Source: Escherichia phage HX01. Taken from it: DNA of 64,000 bases. The notes under the pieces were generated by a model. It saw nothing but the letters and a program-made list of their open reading frames with translations. It was not told the origin of the DNA and did not search any database. Shown here piece by piece: positions 15,734 to 56,204 of this stretch. Every line of letters begins with the position of its first letter. Within the stretch, counting starts at the first letter, position 1. Both the position numbers and the translations under genes were made by a program. The stretch lies in the sequence record NC_018855.1; one strand, given 5' to 3'.

Positions 15734-15762
15734 GTTTACATGTGCTTCAAACATGATATTAT
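15734..15762 (+). promoter_or_regulatory. Early-type promoter (GTTTAC-17-TATTAT) with MotA-box-like GCTTCA
   Basis: Part of a repeated promoter-leader module. Confidence 0.55.
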
Positions 15763-15801
15763 AGACCTATCAAAACAAAACAACCAAATTGGAGAAATAA
15801 A

Positions 15802-16017
15802 ATGTCTAAAATGAAATTAACCCAAAACACAACTACTCGTTTTGGTAAAGTTAAACCTGGTATGAATGCTCCCCGTAAAGCACTTGTTGAAGAATTAAAT
15901 TTCTTAGAAGTTGAAATCAATTCTTTAGTGGTTCGCGGTTCAAATGGACATCGTTTAGAAAAGCTTCGTTCTAAAAAGGCAAAACTTATTGGCCTTATTA
16001 AAGAAATGAGTTTGTAA
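15802..16017 (+). CDS. Hypothetical basic protein
   Basis: 71 aa; driven by a copy of the motA promoter-leader module. Confidence 0.5.
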   Translation: MSKMKLTQNTTTRFGKVKPGMNAPRKALVEELNFLEVEINSLVVRGSNGHRLEKLRSKKAKLIGLIKEMSL

Positions 16018-16055
16018 ATTTTACCAGGGCTTTTGGAAAAAGAGCCCAAAATAAA

Positions 16056-16084
16056 GTTTACTTTTGCTTCAAACATGATATTAT
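16056..16084 (+). promoter_or_regulatory. motA promoter (GTTTAC-17-TATTAT)
   Basis: Second copy of the module; 38 nt upstream of motA ATG. Confidence 0.6.
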
Positions 16085-16764: not shown

Positions 16765-17109
16765 ATGAATAAGCTGAATATTATTAACGAACTTCGTAAA
16801 TGTGCAGAACCTACTCAGGAAGGATGGGATATTTGGTACCACGGGGCTTATCTTGGAACTATAGTTAAAGTTAAAGCTGGGTTATATTTAATTATTCGCG
16901 AAAATTCTGAATTCCCTAATGGAGTAGCTCCTGGCGGTATACGTAAAAACTTTATGGCAGCGATCAGTTCATTTGTTGATGCCGCTTACGAAATCTATAA
17001 AGAAGATTATAAAGAATATCAGCAGTCACAACCGGTTATTCGTTCGATTGGTGTAAATAAACAAGCACAAAAATCTATTTGGCAACGTATTAAGGAATGG
17101 TTTAAATGA
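16765..17109 (+). CDS. Hypothetical protein
   Basis: 114 aa ORF, RBS GAGGAA. Confidence 0.55.
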
Positions 17110-17567
17110 AATCATTTAAAGAACGTTTAGAGCTATTAGATTTGGCCTTGTCTCGTGAGACTCCTGAAAGTCTAGCAGAAAAATTACAGTCCTACGGTTA
17201 TAATTATTCTGCTGATGATGTAATGAATGAAGTTCCTGAAATCTGTTGGCAAACGTGCTATTGGAATAATGACCAAAAAGTTCAACGTGTTATAGTATGT
17301 GCAGCTAATAGGTTTAAATTGAAGAGTGGTGGAACTCTGGTTATTCCTGGAGTTCGTCATTACTCTAAAGATATGGCTGAAGTACTTGATATAGTTGGTC
17401 CTCAATTAGTCTCGCAACAAGTTTGTGGTGACGATCAAGGCTTTATCGACCAATACTCTAATTACTGGACTCGTGAAGAAGCAATGGTTATTGCAACGTA
17501 TGCTGGACAGGTACGTATTGAACGTGGCGGAAGCGAGAAAGAACTTTATTCAGAGGACCTTTATTAA
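17106..17567 (+). CDS. Hypothetical protein
   Basis: 153 aa, ATG overlapping upstream stop. Confidence 0.55.
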
Positions 17568-17848
17568 TGAATATTAAACAACTCCAGAAAGATGCTATTG
17601 AATCACGCATCCAAGATATCAAACGTCTTAATCATATGATGGAAGAAAACTATGGTATGTATGCTAATCAGCCTGGTTGGGACGCTTTAGACCATCCTTA
17701 TTTGGTTAATTTATGTAAAGGTGATACGTTAGCAATTATTCGTGATGGGTTAAAACCTTTCTTACGCGACATGTATATTAAAATGAACGAAGAAATTATT
17801 AGCTCGTTGCAATATCAATTAAGGAAATTAGATGATGAGAATAATTGA
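17567..17848 (+). CDS. Hypothetical protein
   Basis: 93 aa, start overlaps upstream stop (TAATG). Confidence 0.5.
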   Translation: MNIKQLQKDAIESRIQDIKRLNHMMEENYGMYANQPGWDALDHPYLVNLCKGDTLAIIRDGLKPFLRDMYIKMNEEIISSLQYQLRKLDDENN

Positions 17849-18050
17849 TTCTAAAGCAGATTATTTTAATTCTGTTAATGATAAGAATAAAGCTTTAATT
17901 CGCCACTTTATTACTGAGATGGGATACACTGACTCTAAAGATTTGAAAGAGCACATTATCGAATGTTCTGTGGCTAAAAAGTTTTCTTTTACCGATAAAT
18001 GTTTAAACGAGGTTATAAAGCATTATGAACAATCTTGTAGCAAAACATAA
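17832..18050 (+). CDS. Hypothetical protein
   Basis: 72 aa with RBS AAGGA. Confidence 0.45.
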   Translation: MMRIIDSKADYFNSVNDKNKALIRHFITEMGYTDSKDLKEHIIECSVAKKFSFTDKCLNEVIKHYEQSCSKT

Positions 18051-18133
18051 TTTCAATAAGGCTTCTGTTCATAAGGACAAGAAGAAATCAGAACTTCAAT
18101 CTAAACGTAAACAAAAACATAAGGGTAAAGACT

Positions 18134-18433
18134 ATGCTTATTAAAATCAAAGAAAATCCTGCAACTGAACTTGTTATTCGATGCGAAGAACTTGCAGAGC
18201 TTTATCAGGTTAACCGAGAAGTATATCGTAGTGTTGTTGCAGATATGGCAGACGAAGTATGTTCTCGTATTCCTTTTAGTGTTGATTTCAATCACATGAA
18301 GCCTGGTGAAATCACTATCGTCTTTGGTTCTGACTATACTGAAGAACGGGCTCTTAATGCCCTAGAATATGAAATGTCGTTCTTCGACATACAGGACTAT
18401 ATTGATAGTTATAAGGAACGATATGAGTCATAA
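18134..18433 (+). CDS. Hypothetical acidic protein
   Basis: 99 aa ORF between motA and asiA. Confidence 0.5.
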   Translation: MLIKIKENPATELVIRCEELAELYQVNREVYRSVVADMADEVCSRIPFSVDFNHMKPGEITIVFGSDYTEERALNALEYEMSFFDIQDYIDSYKERYES

Positions 18434-18584
18434 TCTTCAGAACGTAGTAGAGGCCGAACGTGAGCGTGAGGCTTTAGTCTATAATGAACTATTAGTTCCG
18501 TTCTTGGCCTTACACTCGTACGAACAGGAAGACTACACCAATTACGTTAAAAGCGTAGAAAAAGCCATTTACAATCAACACTGA
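18422..18584 (+). CDS. Hypothetical small acidic protein
   Basis: ORF track 18369-18584; start moved to ATG 18422 overlapping upstream stop. Confidence 0.4.
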
Positions 18585-18630
18585 TAATGGTACTATATCC
18601 ATATCAACTAAGTGGAATGAATAAAACGTT

Positions 18631-18903
18631 ATGAATAAAGACATTGAAATCGTACGTGAAATTATTACTATTGCTTCTATTTTGATTAAATTCTCTAGGG
18701 AAGATATTGTTGAAGACCGAGCAAGTTTCATCGGATTCTTGAATGAGATTGGAATTAAAAAAGATGGTCGGCAGCTAAATCAGAATTCGTTCAGAAAACT
18801 AATTACAAATTTAACTGCCGAAGAAAAGAAAACACTGATTAGTGAATTCAACGAAGGTTTTGAAAATATTTATCGTCATTTAGCGATGTATTCTAACAAC
18901 TAA
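18631..18903 (+). CDS. asiA: Anti-sigma-70 factor AsiA
   Basis: 90 aa; MNKDIEIVREIITIASILIKFSREDIVE...NQNSFRK matches T4 AsiA. Confidence 0.92.
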   Translation: MNKDIEIVREIITIASILIKFSREDIVEDRASFIGFLNEIGIKKDGRQLNQNSFRKLITNLTAEEKKTLISEFNEGFENIYRHLAMYSNN

Positions 18904-19563
18904 TTATTTGGCCCTTCCTAGTATTCGGACCGCTTGGTTGCATATAGCCGCTAAGCGATCCTCCTCAAGTATATTATTCCCCTTATACCAATACATCGTC
19001 ACAGTTCCAGCATAGATGTTATCCAAATTAAAGTATGGACAACTATACATATAAGAAAGTTCGGCAGTCTTAGATTTTGTAGGCAAAAATGCAAATTCTG
19101 ATTTAGATGAGAAATGACGGCCACTTAAATGAATTATATATTCATTGGCCGTTTTATCCACCGGGAATCCACCAAGGGACTTTTCAGAAATTGTGCTAGG
19201 TAGTTTGCCTTCATAAGCTATAAGGTCGACAAAATAATTTAAGTTTTTAGGTCTGAAAGAATACACAGCACTAAAATCTGCACCAGATGAGATATGAACT
19301 ATTTGCAGTTGTTCTAGAGCCGCAGATTCAAAACGTAAAGCTCGTTCTTTTTGGATTATTTCAGTATAAGTATCATACTTAGCTCTTACGTAATAATCCA
19401 GCAAAATACTTCCTTTGTACCATATTAGTGCCATTAGGAACAAAAGAATAATTACCGCTACTCGTGACATTAAAACCTTTCCAGTAGCGTTATCTTTGAA
19501 AATACGATCTAGCAACCCAAATAGAATATCACTAGGTGAAAATGACACTTTTGGTGTTGCCAT
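18904..19563 (-). CDS. t: Holin T
   Basis: 219 aa; MATPKVSFSPSDILFGLLDRIFKDNATGKVL... matches T4 holin (218 aa). Confidence 0.92.
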   Translation of the reverse strand: MATPKVSFSPSDILFGLLDRIFKDNATGKVLMSRVAVIILLFLMALIWYKGSILLDYYVRAKYDTYTEIIQKERALRFESAALEQLQIVHISSGADFSAVYSFRPKNLNYFVDLIAYEGKLPSTISEKSLGGFPVDKTANEYIIHLSGRHFSSKSEFAFLPTKSKTAELSYMYSCPYFNLDNIYAGTVTMYWYKGNNILEEDRLAAICNQAVRILGRAK

Positions 19564-19572
19564 AATACCTCC

Positions 19573-20124
19573 TTACTTAAAGATATTTATAATCGCTTTG
19601 AAAATAGATTTGTTTTCAAGGTCAGGGAATTTAGGGAATTCGCCGCCAAGATGTTCATGTTTTTCTAAAAGGGCAAAGAATTTTTTGAGCTCTTTAAATT
19701 TTCGTTTTTCTTCTCTATTAGCAACCTCTGCGTCAATAAGAGAACTTAAAACACCGAATAATTTATAGAGTTCATGAATTTTCTTGTCACGTTGAACTAC
19801 GCGTTTATATGCTTCATCTTCCTTCCACCCGTCACCGGACCAAATGTCAAATTCACCAGGTTCTTCTGTAGTAACATTTTGAAGAGTACCTGGAGTGTCA
19901 ATAACAATTTTTTGCTTATCATAAGTCCATACTGTTTTTCCACGATGGTCTTCGACATATACCCATTCTTGTTCGCGTTCATCAAATACAACAGCATAGC
20001 CTTCTTTAGGGTCTAAAGGTTTTTTTGGTGTCGAATGAGCCGGAAATCCTACGCCTTTTAATGGTTTATAATTTTCTTCTTTGTAAAATTCTTTAGTGTC
20101 AAAATAATAGTGATAGAGTTTCAT
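19573..20124 (-). CDS. 38: gp38, tail fibre assembly chaperone (T4-type, 183 aa)
   Basis: 183 aa; MKLYHYYFDTKEFYKEENYKP... as in T4 gp38. Confidence 0.9.
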   Translation of the reverse strand: MKLYHYYFDTKEFYKEENYKPLKGVGFPAHSTPKKPLDPKEGYAVVFDEREQEWVYVEDHRGKTVWTYDKQKIVIDTPGTLQNVTTEEPGEFDIWSGDGWKEDEAYKRVVQRDKKIHELYKLFGVLSSLIDAEVANREEKRKFKELKKFFALLEKHEHLGGEFPKFPDLENKSIFKAIINIFK

Positions 20125-20128
20125 ATTA

Positions 20129-20148
20129 TAAAAAGGGACCGAAGTCCC
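20129..20148 (-). terminator. Intrinsic terminator downstream of gene 37 (- strand)
   Basis: - strand reads GGGACTTCGGTCCC then TTTTTATAAT. Confidence 0.65.
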
Positions 20149-20154
20149 TTCTCC

Positions 20155-23100
20155 TTATGCTAAACGAACGATATAGTTAAAAGCAACGTTTTTAACTGTG
20201 TTTTCTGTATTTCCTGTGGCATTTACAGTTATTGTATGTCCATGGGAACCAATTGCAACAGTATGAGAATGAGCACCAATACCCACAGTATGCGTATGAG
20301 CACCAATACCCACAGTATGAGCATGGTTACCCGTAGCGCTAGTAGTTCCTGACCAACTATGAGTGTGGGCACCATCTGAAGAAGTTTTGGCTATATTCGA
20401 CCCTGCAGTAGCACCATTCACGGTTCCAGTGAATTTAGCGTTGGCGTTTGCACCTACACTATTATATCCGTCATAGAATATGTTATTGGGTATGCCGGCT
20501 TGTATCTGAGGGCCTGAACGCGCGTGTTGGTGCGCACCGGCGGAACTAGTATTACCGCTCACTGTATGGTTATGGTTACCAGTGGTATTACTGGTCTTAG
20601 TACCATAATCAAAGCTTGAAGTCGTTTTGCTACCGTAATCAAAACTAGAAGTGGTCTTAGTACCCAAATCCGTGTTTGATGCACTTGCACTATGGCTATG
20701 TGACTTAACACCGTCTGCTTCTGTACTTAATACAGCACGCCCAGATGGTTTACCCTTGATAGTTTGACCACGCATATCAGGCAGAGAGCCGGAAGGATAC
20801 ACAGCAGCTAACTTAGGATACAAGCCAGCATCAAATGTTTGACCTTCCATTATGGCGTAACCTTCAGGAGGTGTATCAGTAGGCCAAGGAATCGGAGCAC
20901 CAATTGGATAACTTGAGACAATATCCGTCTTAAGGTTATTTATTGTGGTATTCAAGTTAGCAAAATTGCCAGAACCACCGGTGATATTACCATCAGTACC
21001 AATACGAACATTACCAGCGCCTAATTTACCAGGAGAGTAAAAATCACCGTTTTTATTAAATTCCCAACCTAAATCCTTTATAATTGCGCCAGTAGAACCG
21101 CCATCGCCACCTTCGTGATAATGAACTCTAAAGTTACCACCATTAATTAAAGTACCAATAGAATAGCAACTATTATTTTGAACGTATCTTTGTTTCACAA
21201 TAGGAACATAAGTGCTTGTATCTGTTCTATCAATATTCATATAGAAAGGAGCACGAACGTTTTCATTATTTTGTGAAGCAAAAGAACCGGCTCCAGCTGG
21301 GCGAACAGCATCAGTACATTCTGCATCAATGTACGCCGACTGACCTATCTGCATTCTGAAATTAGGAGAAATGCGACTATTACTAGTAACAACAACAAGT
21401 TTGTTATCGTTGTCCACAGTAATCATATTACCACCAGCACCATCATCGCCTAACGTAACAGAATGACGCATTTGCACCATACCATTATTAAGGCTAATAC
21501 TAAGCGGGCGGAGATTACTTATTCCACCACTTTCACCTGCATCTTTAAGTGTAGGTATAATATACAAAGACGCTTCAGAACGACGGAAAATAGCTCCATA
21601 TTCAGCATTGTAAATACGGAAAGCATCTGCGGTATTACCGATTTTAACTTGACCTGTAATAGAACCACCGCCGGATAAAACAAGCCCGTTATCCATAGTA
21701 ACTTGTCCGGATAATGTACTTAATCCATTAACTCTAAGACTTCCATCGGTGATAATGCTCCCTCTTGCATTCAGTTGTCCATTAATTTGTGTTACAACAG
21801 GTCCCACAGTTTCTGAACCGGTTGGAGCCACACGCTGTGAATAAAAATAATATCCTTGTCCGTCAGCTACTTCAAAAACTGTTTCACGATTACGATCGCC
21901 GGATGCGTTAAATGAATTACCCCATGCTTTAACAGTTACATAACTCTTATTCTGACCTGCTCGAGTACCGCCTTCCCACATGATTTGCTTAGTGCCGTCA
22001 ATACCTGAAGCTGCTTTAAAAACTAGAGAAGCATTAGTTCCATCACCATTAAAATATAATCCATTATTAAGCTTTAACGTTTGAACAGAAGCGACGGTAC
22101 CATCAGCACGCAAACTTAATGTATTTGAACTAGTTTTAATATCTAAAATTCCTGGTTCAACAATAAGTCCTTCGGCCATGCCAACAGCCATACGACCTGT
22201 ACCACGGAAATAGTGATACATCTTGGCATTGCTGCTATAACCTATATGAGTCTGACCATCGCCGTTATTATTACCATCAATATCGGTGCGTGCGGTAAAC
22301 ATTGCTTGGTTGTTATTTGGAAAATCCCAGGTAGAACCGGAATCTCGACTATAACCAACCATCAATTTTTTAGTACTGTTAATACCGTTATTAAGAATAG
22401 TGCCGGCAGAAATACCATTCGCAACTAAATCGATAACCCCGTCACGAACCCATTTAATACCAGTATCATTGTCACCAATTGCAATACCTTTACCAAACGA
22501 AACCAATGGATAACGTCCTTGGTCACCAACATCAGCAAGACCTATACCTATCGAATTAGCAACAGACATACGCCCATCTGTGGTATAAGACCATTGATAA
22601 ACTTCAGCATTACGTCCCGTCCAATACGAAATATTCTGTGGTTTACCTGAACGAGCATCAGCAACTTCATGGAAAATAGCAGAAGAAACATGTCCGCGGA
22701 ATTTACGAAGGTAGTTTATACCATTAGTATCCAAATCCGTTTCGGTTGGAGTATACTGCCAAGTCGGTAATGAAACTAAATCATATGCAGTATCAATATT
22801 AGTGTCCCAAGATTTAGTGCTCACATTGATATTTTTGGTAATAACTTTAGGACCAATTAAAGAACCAGCTTTAGTTTCAATATTACTTTGAGTAACTAAA
22901 TATCCATTAGATACTAATAAACTTCCGGAATCAACTTGAAAATTACCGTTTCGATTAAAAGTCCAGTATTTTGAAGTCCCGGTTTCATCAATATAATGGA
23001 ATTTAAAACTACCTTCGTTTACTAATGTACCAGCAGAAAAAGTTCCATCTTTATAGCGTTGTTTAATCAGCGGATGGTATTCTGAAACAGAAGTAGTTGA

Positions 23101-23448
23101 ACTTAAATCTGTAAAGATAGGGGCTTTATTCAAATGTTGGTTGGCCCAACGAGCACCATTTCCAGCGGTTTTAGGTAAAAATTCAATATACTTACCGGCG
23201 TAAACGAACATATTACCATTGAGGTTAAATGTGCCGTTTTGTAAATAATCACCATTTTGAGTTACATTACCGTTAATATCCCCGCCCTTAGCAAAGCCTA
23301 GGCTAATAATATTACCGAGGTCATCTTTAGTAAAAAGAGTTCGATCTTTTAAGTTTATCGCTAATTCGCCTTCGGCTAATTGTGCCGCAGTAGGATTAAC
23401 TCCTGCTACTTTGCTTCTTTTAAATTGTATCTGTTTTAATGTAGCCAT
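20155..23448 (-). CDS. 37: gp37, long tail fibre distal subunit with C-terminal His-box receptor-binding tip
   Basis: 1097 aa; N-terminus [16 protein letters not shown]... as T4 gp37; C-terminal HxH repeats. Confidence 0.93.
20244..20324 (-). repeat. Tandem 27-nt repeats encoding His-box (HxH) units in gp37 C-terminal tip
   Basis: GAGCACCAATACCCACAGTATG(C/A)G(T/C)AT repeated twice plus a degenerate third copy; encodes GAHTHTVGI-type units. Confidence 0.75.
20593..20665 (-). repeat. Tandem about 30-nt repeats in gene 37 encoding KTTSSFDYG(S/T)
   Basis: Direct nucleotide repeat; protein shows [21 protein letters not shown]. Confidence 0.7.
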
Positions 23449-24181: not shown

Positions 24182-25309
24182 TTATTCCGATGCTTCTTTA
24201 AATTCTTGTCCAAATACCTTACCAGTATCAGTTGAAGATTGAGTAGGTAATGTCATTATGTCTGGGGCACTTAAAGATTCTGAAACATAATTTACACGAA
24301 TACCATTTACACCAAACTCAGCAGGTTTTGAAACGCTTCCATTACATGATACTTCAGTGAATATAATGTTTCTTAATCCACCTTGCCCGACTGGAGCTGT
24401 ACGATAACAATAAATCGTGAACCCGTCAGCACCAGCAGGAATTTCTATGTAGTCTTCATATATCTTCCATTCACCTGCAGCCCCATCAAAGTTTATATCC
24501 TTAAATGAAATAGGTGAAGTAGAAGGAGATTTAAAGAAACGAATAGAAAGTCGTGTCGTCCCTTGTGCTAACAAATCAGCATCGGCCATTAGTTGGAATT
24601 TCATATAAAGGAAATCTCCAGGCTTCAATTTATACCCAGCGAGAGGTGTAATAAGGGATGTTGTAGGCATCCTTTTAATTTCATTATTAGTACCTCCAAC
24701 GGCAGATAAAAATGTGTCTGTCGATTCATACGTACGACTAGGGAAGCCGGTAGCACCAATATCGTCGATCGTGTCATACACAACATCAAGTGGTGTACTA
24801 TAGTCGGTTGAAGTTTTCTTATTACTATACTTAATATGTTCTAGTGCTATAGCATTCTTACCAGAAATATAAAATGCCGAATAAGAAATGTCCACTATAT
24901 TTAAAACTTGTTGAGCTAATGGAATAGCAGAACTTCCGGCTTTATTAAACCATGTAAGAACTTCAGGCGGAAAGTTTGTTTTAGCGTTAGTAACAAGAGC
25001 AAATATAAAATTTGAAGCATATGTGTCCATGAAAGTAACAAATGCACTTGACGTTGTGTCGTTTTCAGTAGAGAAATTATATGACTTAGATTCAACTACT
25101 GCACCTGTTGTAGGATTTATTACACGAACGTTTAATCCAACGGAAAAAACCTGGGACCCAAGTGGATTATCTTGGAACTTAATATAAGCAGGAGATGTTG
25201 ATAGCGGGCAAGAGCCCGCTATGCTTAATTTAAATCGTACTGAATTGCTTTCCGATAAAAATGGCGTTTGGACGTATCCTTGTCCGAACTTAGCCATAAA
25301 TTTTTCCAT
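24182..25309 (-). CDS. 35: gp35, long tail fibre hinge protein
   Basis: 375 aa (T4 372 aa); synteny. Confidence 0.9.
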   Translation of the reverse strand: MEKFMAKFGQGYVQTPFLSESNSVRFKLSIAGSCPLSTSPAYIKFQDNPLGSQVFSVGLNVRVINPTTGAVVESKSYNFSTENDTTSSAFVTFMDTYASNFIFALVTNAKTNFPPEVLTWFNKAGSSAIPLAQQVLNIVDISYSAFYISGKNAIALEHIKYSNKKTSTDYSTPLDVVYDTIDDIGATGFPSRTYESTDTFLSAVGGTNNEIKRMPTTSLITPLAGYKLKPGDFLYMKFQLMADADLLAQGTTRLSIRFFKSPSTSPISFKDINFDGAAGEWKIYEDYIEIPAGADGFTIYCYRTAPVGQGGLRNIIFTEVSCNGSVSKPAEFGVNGIRVNYVSESLSAPDIMTLPTQSSTDTGKVFGQEFKEASE

Positions 25310-54914: not shown

Positions 54915-55208
54915 ATGAAATCTATGCTTCGCTTTAATGGTCAAGAACTAGTAGTTGAAGATGTTATCCCAGCGGATGATGCTTTTAACGAAGCTGTGAT
55001 TGACGAATTGAATCGAGTATTCCCAGGTGCATTCCATATTGCTATGGAACCTCTTAAAAACTTTCGTGACCCTGAGCACACTGATCAAATTTTTGTCGGT
55101 GTAGTGACAGGTCATTTAGAAACAGAGGTACCAATGGTCGTATTAGTTAAATACTCTAAAGATGATACTCCATTCCGAGCACCAGCATTCCTTTCATTCC
55201 GTAAATAA
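54915..55208 (+). CDS. Hypothetical protein
   Basis: ORF track 54843-55208; start moved to ATG 54915 downstream of promoter 54856-54885 (RBS GAGGAAAA). Confidence 0.5.
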   Translation: MKSMLRFNGQELVVEDVIPADDAFNEAVIDELNRVFPGAFHIAMEPLKNFRDPEHTDQIFVGVVTGHLETEVPMVVLVKYSKDDTPFRAPAFLSFRK

Positions 55209-55217
55209 ACCCCTAAA

Positions 55218-55240
55218 GGGAGACGTTGTCTCCCTTTTTC
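55218..55240. terminator. Terminator hairpin between convergent + early and - late genes
   Basis: GGGAGAC-GTTG-GTCTCCC followed by TTTTT on + strand; only a short T-run on - strand. Confidence 0.65.
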
Positions 55241-55241
55241 T

Positions 55242-56204
55242 TTATAGTCCTAAAACTCTTGACGCAGAATTCACCACACCTGTCAATGTGTTTATATTAG
55301 ACACACCTCCAGCAGTCCCACCTAATCTAGAAAGTCTTGATACTGCACTTCCTAGACCAGAATCATTCTGATTATTTCCAAACATTCCTGAAACACTACT
55401 AATAAGTCCTGATTCCAGCCATTCTAAAGCAGCCTGTCTATTTACAGCACCTGATTGCATAACGCGATAAGCAAATGTTACATCAAAAACTGTTATCTGA
55501 TTATCACCGTCATACGTTAACTCAGGAGAAGAGACACTAACAGGAATACATCCAGTGAACATGACAGCGGTATGTGGTAAACCATTTCGTGCATGTAAAT
55601 TAACCTGAATATCTGCTTCGACGTCTTGTGGTAAAGCGCGAAGACCTGTTACAGGGTCTTGGACTGAGTTTACCCAGTCTTGCATTGCTCTAAAGTTAGA
55701 TGCTTCAGAATCCATTCTAAAGCTTATTACTAACGGGTCCATTTCACGGCCGGTAATTCGGATGTTCGGTGAGTTATAGTTGAAATCTGTTTCATAAGAT
55801 AATCGGTTCTCAGGCATTTTTACAGAATAAATCATTAAACCTGTATTATTATATGCCATATTGAAGAAGTCTATCAGATAAGCTCCTACTGTGAACTCGC
55901 CTAACAAGCTTTGTACCGTACGTTGACTCATTGCTCCAATCAGATATTTACTTACACCTGATTTTCGAATTAATTTCTGTGTCCCTGCTGTAATCAGGGT
56001 TGTTACGCCCTGATTGATATCACCTTGAGTCAATCCTAGCCAATCGGAATCCAACCCTAAGTTATTATAAGCAAAACTACCAATTGACGAAATTAGTGAA
56101 GACGATTTGGTTGATGGTGTAGTAGCAAATACACAACTAAACATATTGTTTCGTTGGAAATCTGCATTTATAGCTTGGTTATTAAATTCTTCTAAAGAGT
56201 ACAT
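55242..56204 (-). CDS. 54: gp54 baseplate tail-tube initiator
   Basis: 320 aa; MYSLEEFNNQAINADFQRNNMFSCVFATTPSTKSSSLISS... matches T4 gp54. Confidence 0.93.
   Translation of the reverse strand: MYSLEEFNNQAINADFQRNNMFSCVFATTPSTKSSSLISSIGSFAYNNLGLDSDWLGLTQGDINQGVTTLITAGTQKLIRKSGVSKYLIGAMSQRTVQSLLGEFTVGAYLIDFFNMAYNNTGLMIYSVKMPENRLSYETDFNYNSPNIRITGREMDPLVISFRMDSEASNFRAMQDWVNSVQDPVTGLRALPQDVEADIQVNLHARNGLPHTAVMFTGCIPVSVSSPELTYDGDNQITVFDVTFAYRVMQSGAVNRQAALEWLESGLISSVSGMFGNNQNDSGLGSAVSRLSRLGGTAGGVSNINTLTGVVNSASRVLGL

Follow-up and report, generated by a model that had tools for sequence, protein, structure and literature searches.

asiA and t converge without intergenic sequence

The window analysed here, meaning the whole stretch of 64,000 nt from Escherichia phage HX01 (NC_018855.1), belongs to a Mosigvirus-type T4-like phage. 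On its plus strand it carries asiA (18631–18903), which encodes a 90-aa anti-sigma-70 factor, and on its minus strand t (18904–19563), which encodes a T-type holin of 219 aa. AsiA is a member of Pfam family AsiA (PF09010; E 2.4e-32, 111.4 bits against a cut-off of 25), with residues 2–81 aligned to positions 1–85 of the 85 in the profile; it also matches PHROG 1166 over its full length (anti-sigma factor, E 1.7e-39) and is 73% identical to AsiA of T4. The holin falls into Pfam family Phage_holin_T (PF11031; E 4.2e-92, 308.2 bits against a cut-off of 22.2, residues 6–218 on positions 2–233 of 233), matches the PHROG holins (E 1.6e-102) and shares 75% identity with T4 T. asiA is the final gene of an early transcription unit, and t is the final gene of the late tail-fibre/lysis block 34-35-36-37-38-t. 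Upstream of t, also on the minus strand, lie the homologues of gene 38 (tail fibre assembly; 19573–20124, PHROG tail fiber assembly, E 6e-49) and gene 37; t, 38 and 37 together span 18904–23448.

The two genes meet at the hexamer TAATTA (18901–18906), in which the TAA of asiA (18901–18903) is followed directly by the TTA of t (18904–18906), so that two TAA stop codons stand back to back with zero intergenic bases (junction aacaacTAATTAtttggc; plus strand AACAAC TAA TTA TTTGGC). An earlier, sequence-only reading of this DNA had named the two genes, their convergent orientation and the zero spacer between them, all of which are borne out by the sequence, the open reading frames and the Pfam and PHROG matches. 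In a crude gene map of the window, asiA/t is the sole convergent pair without a spacer, the other convergent spacers measuring 33, 56 and 142 nt. Among same-strand neighbours 36% overlap or touch, indicating that tight packing is the norm in the window. A further convergent junction in this map, 15616/15759, may be spurious: the 105-aa ORF at 15759–16076 (minus strand), which runs opposite to its neighbours downstream of a topoisomerase II subunit gene, has no PHROG match and is possibly no gene.

The layout of the asiA/t junction is already known, as T4 has the identical arrangement. In T4 (NC_000866; t at 160221–160877, plus strand; asiA at 160878–161150, minus strand) the same genes converge on the same TAATTA with zero spacer (sequence AAATAATTATTTAG). 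The junction is thus a textbook piece of T4 genome layout and adds little as a finding by itself. The region around it is 98–99% identical to that of many Mosigvirus phages (e.g., PNJ-6, F2 and slur03), which carry the same annotation.

Promoter and terminator signals

A candidate early sigma-70-type promoter for asiA, TTTACA-17-TACTAT with a TG upstream of the −10 hexamer, is placed at 18568–18596 (plus strand) by its match to the consensus only; the corresponding site in front of asiA in T4 reads TTTACA-17-TATTAT. For t, the late-promoter motif TATAAATA is found at 19584–19591 (minus strand), 21 nt upstream of the start codon and inside the 3′ end of gene 38; record OL960576 lists this copy as a T4-type late promoter. 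As the motif occurs nine times in the window against 7.4 expected, which is not above chance, it is only its position that points to a late promoter at t.

A consensus terminator scan found no site within ~500 nt of the junction on either strand; the nearest site on the minus strand, at 18390–18374, is weak. With zero intergenic bases, asiA/t also has no single intergenic bidirectional terminator with an A-tract and a T-tract. The sequence-only reading had stated that there is no terminator between the two genes. This holds for a canonical or intergenic one, but it overlooked strong hairpins that are embedded past each stop codon in the opposing gene. An Rfam scan of 17000–21000 returned only a sub-threshold plant microRNA match over the asiA hairpin, which at 21 bits against a gathering score of 60 was taken as chance.

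The other early/late convergent junction of the window, 55208/55242, is the counterpart of the T4 alt.-3/54 junction. Here a small early ORF (54915–55208, plus strand, PHROG 1739) faces the gp54 homologue, a gp54-like tail-tube/baseplate gene (55242–56204, minus strand), and the 33-nt spacer between them (55209–55241) is a textbook bidirectional terminator, AAAGGGAGAC-GTTG-GTCTCCCTTTTT, which reads AAA-GGGAGAC-gttg-GTCTCCC-TTTTT (T5). For T4-like genomes, Nolan et al. 2006 (PMC1524935) describe conserved bidirectional terminators between other convergent genes, downstream of uvsW.1 and upstream of alt; t/asiA is not among the junctions they report. These intergenic terminators, like the one at 55209–55241, answer the same problem of converging units with the same type of GC-rich hairpin. 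In contrast, asiA/t of the window has neither a spacer nor a single hairpin bearing A/U tracts on both sides, and instead has two hairpins embedded in coding sequence, each favoured on one strand and each with a weak or offset U-tract.

The boundary between the early unit and t across T4-like phages

Conservation of the boundary was analysed in annotated neighbourhoods from 14 further genera and in 58 IMG/VR loci found with a T-holin alignment, which were reduced to 31 non-redundant T4-like representatives (<90% identity around the junction). Junction spacing is bimodal among the 31: 21 are compact, with distances of −8, −4, 0, +3 or +8 nt, and the remaining 10 have 17–43 nt. Other genera show variants of the stop-codon arrangement, such as TAA|TCA, an overlapping TTAA (−4) or a −8 overlap. 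With 21 of 31 T4-like junctions lying between −8 and +8 nt, the abutment is no chance coincidence of the window. Even where other early ORFs stand between asiA and t, as in Bragavirus, Muldoon, PspYZU05 and, with an unannotated ORF, IME13, the last early ORF still faces t closely. By comparison of these genomes, the convergent meeting of the early unit with t is ancient.

At the t boundary, X20, Muldoon, PspYZU05, IME13 and 10 IMG/VR representatives use a bidirectional terminator in the spacer. In all spacers of at least 17 nt (10/10) there is a GC-rich bidirectional hairpin (−11.7 to −20 kcal/mol) with A and T runs on its flanks; some of these hairpins have a UUCG loop on the t-sense strand.

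Two annotated gaps turned out to be smaller than they appear. In Stenotrophomonas phage IME13 (L012, ~1780–2040) the 302-nt "gap" between asiA and t contains an unannotated open frame of ~87–90 codons on the asiA strand, after which follows the bidirectional terminator A6-GGGAACC-gtaa-GGTTCCC-TTTGTTTT. In Enterobacter phage PG7 (L004, 1764–1849; also L064) t is annotated short, at 193 aa, and 84 nt from asiA. We rejected this gap as a real spacer, since the original LGRAK* end of t can be read 8 nt from the asiA stop; t of PG7 is frameshifted, interrupted or mis-sequenced. Both stops and the spacer of PG7 fold into a small hairpin, GUAACA-uccu-UGUUAC.

Early RNA over late genes in T4 transcriptomes

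From the zero spacer, the sequence-only reading had concluded that the two transcripts must overlap or end inside each other. The logic is sound, and for the direction from the early unit into t, RNA-seq tables of T4 lend it indirect support. Patterson-West et al. 2018 (PMC6024815) found the T4 late genes t and 38 unexpectedly up at 5 min of a motA-amber infection and termed this rise an unusual expression mechanism. In their Table S1, the motA-am/wt fold-changes at 5 min are 3.20 for asiA, 2.95 for asiA.1, 3.20 for arn, 3.17 for t and 3.11 for gene 38, and the ratios for genes 34, 35, 36 and 37 are 0.065, 0.076, 0.117 and 0.58. Read densities per bp from this table for the motA-am infection are 21.2 for asiA, 8.6 for t (40%), 1.95 for gene 38 (9%) and 0.36 for gene 37 (1.7%). 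The density thus declines along the asiA-sense direction, asiA > t > 38 > 37. At the control junction alt.-3/54, which has a 26-nt spacer and lies near a reported terminator, densities are 43.7 and 0.68 reads per bp, and the late gene reaches 1.6% in motA-am and 3% in wild type.

By default, featureCounts is unstranded. The cDNA kit used for RT-qPCR in the T4 motA study is random-primed. The libraries of that study were stranded (TruSeq, GSE111808) and the strand used for counting is unstated (PMC6024815). A second study, which used featureCounts with "default settings", classed t and 38 RNA as early, with gp38 protein appearing late and T undetected (Wolfram-Schauerte et al. 2022, PMC9697503). 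On our assumption, both T4 data sets were apparently counted without regard to strand. The T4 counts then make it likely that RNA of the early asiA unit reads antisense through t, fading through 38 and 37. As the expression data are all from T4, we infer by analogy with these counts that the asiA and t transcripts of HX01 overlap as well, which we consider likely. Early-phase RNA complementary to late genes is the classical "anti-late RNA" of T4; our literature searches on "anti-late" RNA and on T4 3′-end maps returned nothing relevant.

It has to be considered that there is no meaningful overlap, that both transcripts end within a few nt of their stops through polymerase collisions or an unrecognised signal, and that the T4 signal over t and 38 is sense RNA from an unmapped early-type promoter. 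This would agree with the view of the T4 authors, who see an unusual expression mechanism of t and 38 themselves, and with their use of a stranded library kit. However, the fold-changes of t and 38 are within 3% of that of asiA, and the gradient asiA > t > 38 > 37 is opposite to that of a sense transcript running from 38 to t. Moreover, no early promoter is annotated upstream of 38, the gp38 protein is late and T is undetected, and, as there is no spacer, ribosomes that terminate at either stop require an mRNA that reaches into the other gene. We therefore regard an absence of overlap as very improbable. Read-through from asiA offers a simple explanation of why the late genes t and 38 were scored as early or MotA-independent in two T4 studies, and in phage RNA-seq strand-wise counting is needed before temporal classes are assigned.

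The T4 table also shows that loss of DksA raises reads over t 2.4-fold and over 38 2.7-fold, and over asiA only 1.3-fold. Read-through past asiA may therefore depend on DksA or on elongation/termination factors.

A hairpin in the 3′ end of t on the asiA-sense RNA

RNA that continues past the asiA stop runs antisense into the last codons of t and is predicted to form a hairpin 24–58 nt beyond the stop (18927–18961, plus strand; ΔG −18.3 kcal/mol, z −3.55 against dinucleotide shuffles). This is a stable GC-rich stem-loop as expected of an intrinsic terminator, but its tail, UCCUCAAGU, has 3 U in 9 nt and is no U-tract of the intrinsic type. One Mosigvirus record, OL960576, annotates the hairpin as a rho-independent terminator. 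Since 260 local structures of −15 or better are present on both strands of the window, energy alone cannot single out the asiA-sense hairpin. We therefore dropped rarity by energy as a criterion and used recoding nulls, in which the native sequence is compared with synonymous recodings of the same protein segment. The hairpin at 18927–18961 is more stable than its recodings, with z of −2.6 to −3.3 and p of 0.004–0.02. We consider it a candidate 3′-end-forming, stabilising or pause element of the early RNA.

A hairpin at this position is also found in T4, where it occupies the same interval beyond the asiA stop (+24 to +58) and its tail is richer in U than that of the window, as well as in Merlin, AM101 and seven IMG/VR lineages. 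Overall, a t-side hairpin lies at +14 to +71 in 11 of the 21 compact lineages, and its stems are made of the codons of the conserved RL..SIC.QAA motif of the holin. In L036, L053, L049, L056 and L057 a run of T5-6 comes after the homologous hairpin, so that in those lineages it is a canonical terminator. A gap-free alignment of 12 sequences has 83.5% of its cells paired, compared to 78.8 ± 1.3% in shuffles (1 of 500 as high) and 30–61% once the partners are slid. Covariation is modest, with two pairs altered on both sides, and there are two pairing registers, that of the window and T4 being shifted by one. With covariation only moderate and two registers, a single consensus structure for the t-side hairpin was rejected. 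Many of the pairs are G.U and thus exist on the asiA-sense strand only.

The hairpin is polymorphic within Mosigvirus. A 99%-identical relative (L016, 2103–2137) has GCGGTCT where the window has GCGATCC; the difference includes a synonymous change of an Asp codon in t and makes the hairpin of the relative more stable (−22.5 kcal/mol, against −18.3 in the window).

Within the 100 nt directly beyond the asiA stop, about a third of which lie in the hairpin, C is more frequent (0.29) and G rarer (0.15) than in any other stretch nearby, and the asiA-sense RNA has no substantial ORF from there on. With this composition and no ORF to follow, Rho could contribute to ending the asiA read-through RNA.

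A hairpin inside asiA on the t-sense RNA

On the opposite strand, the t-sense RNA is predicted to fold into a longer hairpin 83–136 nt past the t stop, antisense to asiA codons ~46–64 (18767–18821, minus strand; ΔG −22.2). It ranks seventh among the local structures on both strands of the 64-kb window, stands out against its recodings with z of −4.3 to −4.5 (p <= 0.002), and is favoured on the t-sense strand, the fold of the asiA-sense strand being 6.8 kcal/mol weaker. A U6 tract on the t-sense RNA (18757–18762, minus strand) begins 5 nt after the hairpin (tail CCAUCUUUUUUAA), so that the stem of −22.2 is followed by CCAUC-UUUUUU; the 5-nt offset is non-canonical, and the consensus terminator scan did not report the site. 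The flanks of the hairpin are U-rich on the t-sense strand only and A-rich on the asiA-sense strand. The structure at 18767–18821 is a candidate terminator or 3′-end element of the late RNA.

T4 likewise has a terminator-like hairpin inside asiA on the t-sense strand, but there it is formed by AAAACCCUC..GAGGGUUUU at +43 to +76, compared to the long stem at 18767–18821 in the window. Across genomes at least three classes of asiA-side hairpin without homology to each other can be distinguished, at +5 to +42, +40 to +98 and +82 to +136. Their differing positions within asiA and lack of homology suggest selection for some structure rather than for one sequence. One of these classes is equally stable on both strands and could serve the asiA mRNA instead.

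Spacer terminators and embedded hairpins across 31 junctions

None of the compact junctions (n = 21) has a hairpin of the spacer type, and their embedded structure is far more stable than that of recodings, the mean z being −1.7 (t side) and −2.9 (asiA side). In the spacer genomes (n = 10), z for the embedded structure is ~0 (means +0.8 and +0.1). The two groups differ with Mann-Whitney p-values of 9e-5 (t side) and 1.6e-5 (asiA side), which overstate independence because the groups are phylogenetically clustered. The difference is also seen when only genomes in which asiA itself faces t are compared: the three with spacers of 8–26 nt have asiA-side z of −0.1 to +0.5, and all 20 compact ones are lower, the highest at −0.8. 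Among 45 control coding segments of the window, whose mean z was −0.12, one lay below −3. Of random 123-nt coding segments of the window, 3.5% contain an antisense hairpin of −18 or better, and 0 of 400 contain one of −22 or better. Of 16 junction sides, 9 have a structure whose stability on the read-through strand exceeds that on the other strand by at least 4 kcal/mol, compared to a background of 11%. Judged by these predicted folds, the intergenic bidirectional terminator and the coding-embedded hairpins are mutually exclusive across the 31 T4-like junctions.

The 9 nt after the embedded hairpins contain 3.6 and 3.4 U, where 3.4 and 2.8 would be expected. Given that there is no overall enrichment, we do not call the embedded hairpins canonical terminators. 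The missing U-tails would also fit a different origin of the structures, in which they are unrelated to 3′ ends and reflect constraint on, or function in, the genes that host them, such as stability of the asiA mRNA or the codons of the RL..QAA and LNQ..LT motifs, and in which read-through is limited only by Rho and decay. In line with this, the stems are made of conserved peptide motifs, one asiA-side class shows no difference in stability between the strands, the sequence beyond the asiA stop is rich in C and poor in G, and the density in T4 declines gradually (40%, 9%, 1.7%), as expected for Rho or decay. Yet the recoding null conditions on the protein sequence and still returns z down to −4.8, and the excess of structure is gone exactly in the genomes with a spacer terminator, including the three in which asiA is adjacent. 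In addition, through their G.U pairs the hairpins gain stability on the read-through strand, and the t-side hairpin is a canonical terminator with T5-6 in several lineages. On this evidence we think it unlikely that host-gene constraint accounts for the embedded hairpins.

The exclusivity of spacer terminators and embedded hairpins is a modest new angle on a known junction. As a clean case from nature, it illustrates how compaction of a genome can drive RNA 3′-end signals into coding sequence.

Probable compaction and the ends of converging transcripts

We consider the following account probable. At a conserved T4-type boundary, the early unit, whose last gene is asiA, runs into the late tail-fibre/lysis unit, whose last gene is t. 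In the lineage of the window the spacer would have been squeezed out by compaction, and the bidirectional hairpin terminator still kept by more distant relatives would have been lost along with it. With this terminator lost, each transcript would be forced to end inside the opposing gene, where the embedded hairpins, Rho and decay of the untranslated antisense RNA would together set leaky 3′ ends. The late RNA would extend ~80–140 nt or more into asiA, and the early RNA would run antisense across t and dwindle through genes 38 and 37. Given that early and late transcription largely take place at different times, the overlap would mostly be a tolerated outcome of genome compaction and no dedicated regulatory device.

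The sequence-only reading had seen in the overlap an opening for antisense interference, and a regulatory use of it has to be considered as well. Early antisense RNA over t and 38 could block premature holin synthesis, or late antisense RNA reaching into asiA-arn-motA could shut off early messages, either by duplex formation followed by RNase III cleavage or by transcriptional interference between the converging polymerases. Premature holin expression would be costly, and the tight junction is conserved across many genera. T4 early-type RNA over t reaches ~40% of the asiA density, and T is undetected and gp38 late despite the "early" RNA over both genes. In another virulent phage, PAK_P3, a regulatory role has moreover been proposed for early antisense RNAs that cover structural genes (PMC4933390). 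The parallel to PAK_P3 lies in early-phase RNA complementary to late genes, which for t, 38 and part of 37 of T4 we infer from counts. The antisense RNAs of PAK_P3, however, are discrete species with a proposed regulatory role, whereas at t/asiA there is apparently plain read-through of an mRNA past its stop. Relatives thrive with a bidirectional terminator at the same boundary, indicating that the overlap is dispensable; selection seems to limit read-through via the embedded hairpins, not to promote it; and early and late transcription overlap little in time. A regulatory device in either direction thus appears rather improbable to us. We give equally little credence to the more specific proposal that T-even-type phages replaced the bidirectional terminator by leaky strand-specific hairpins such that early antisense RNA over t, and over 38, acts as a safety catch against pre-late holin. 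If true, a safety catch of this kind would also account for the early RNA signal at t and 38 that appeared "unusual" in T4 transcriptomes.

Further features of the late tail-fibre block

Two other structured regions were observed in the late tail-fibre block of the window. A strong hairpin, ATAGCGGGC-tctt-GCCCGCTAT, is formed on both strands at 25176–25235 (~−20 to −22.5 kcal/mol) and may be the conserved gene 35/36 terminator reported by Nolan et al. 2006 (PMC1524935). The C-terminal part of the gene 37 homologue (20155–20450, minus strand) encodes His-rich repeats with a duplicated TSSFDYG(S/T)KT motif in the distal tail-fibre protein, and its DNA repeats give strong local structures at 20271–20331.
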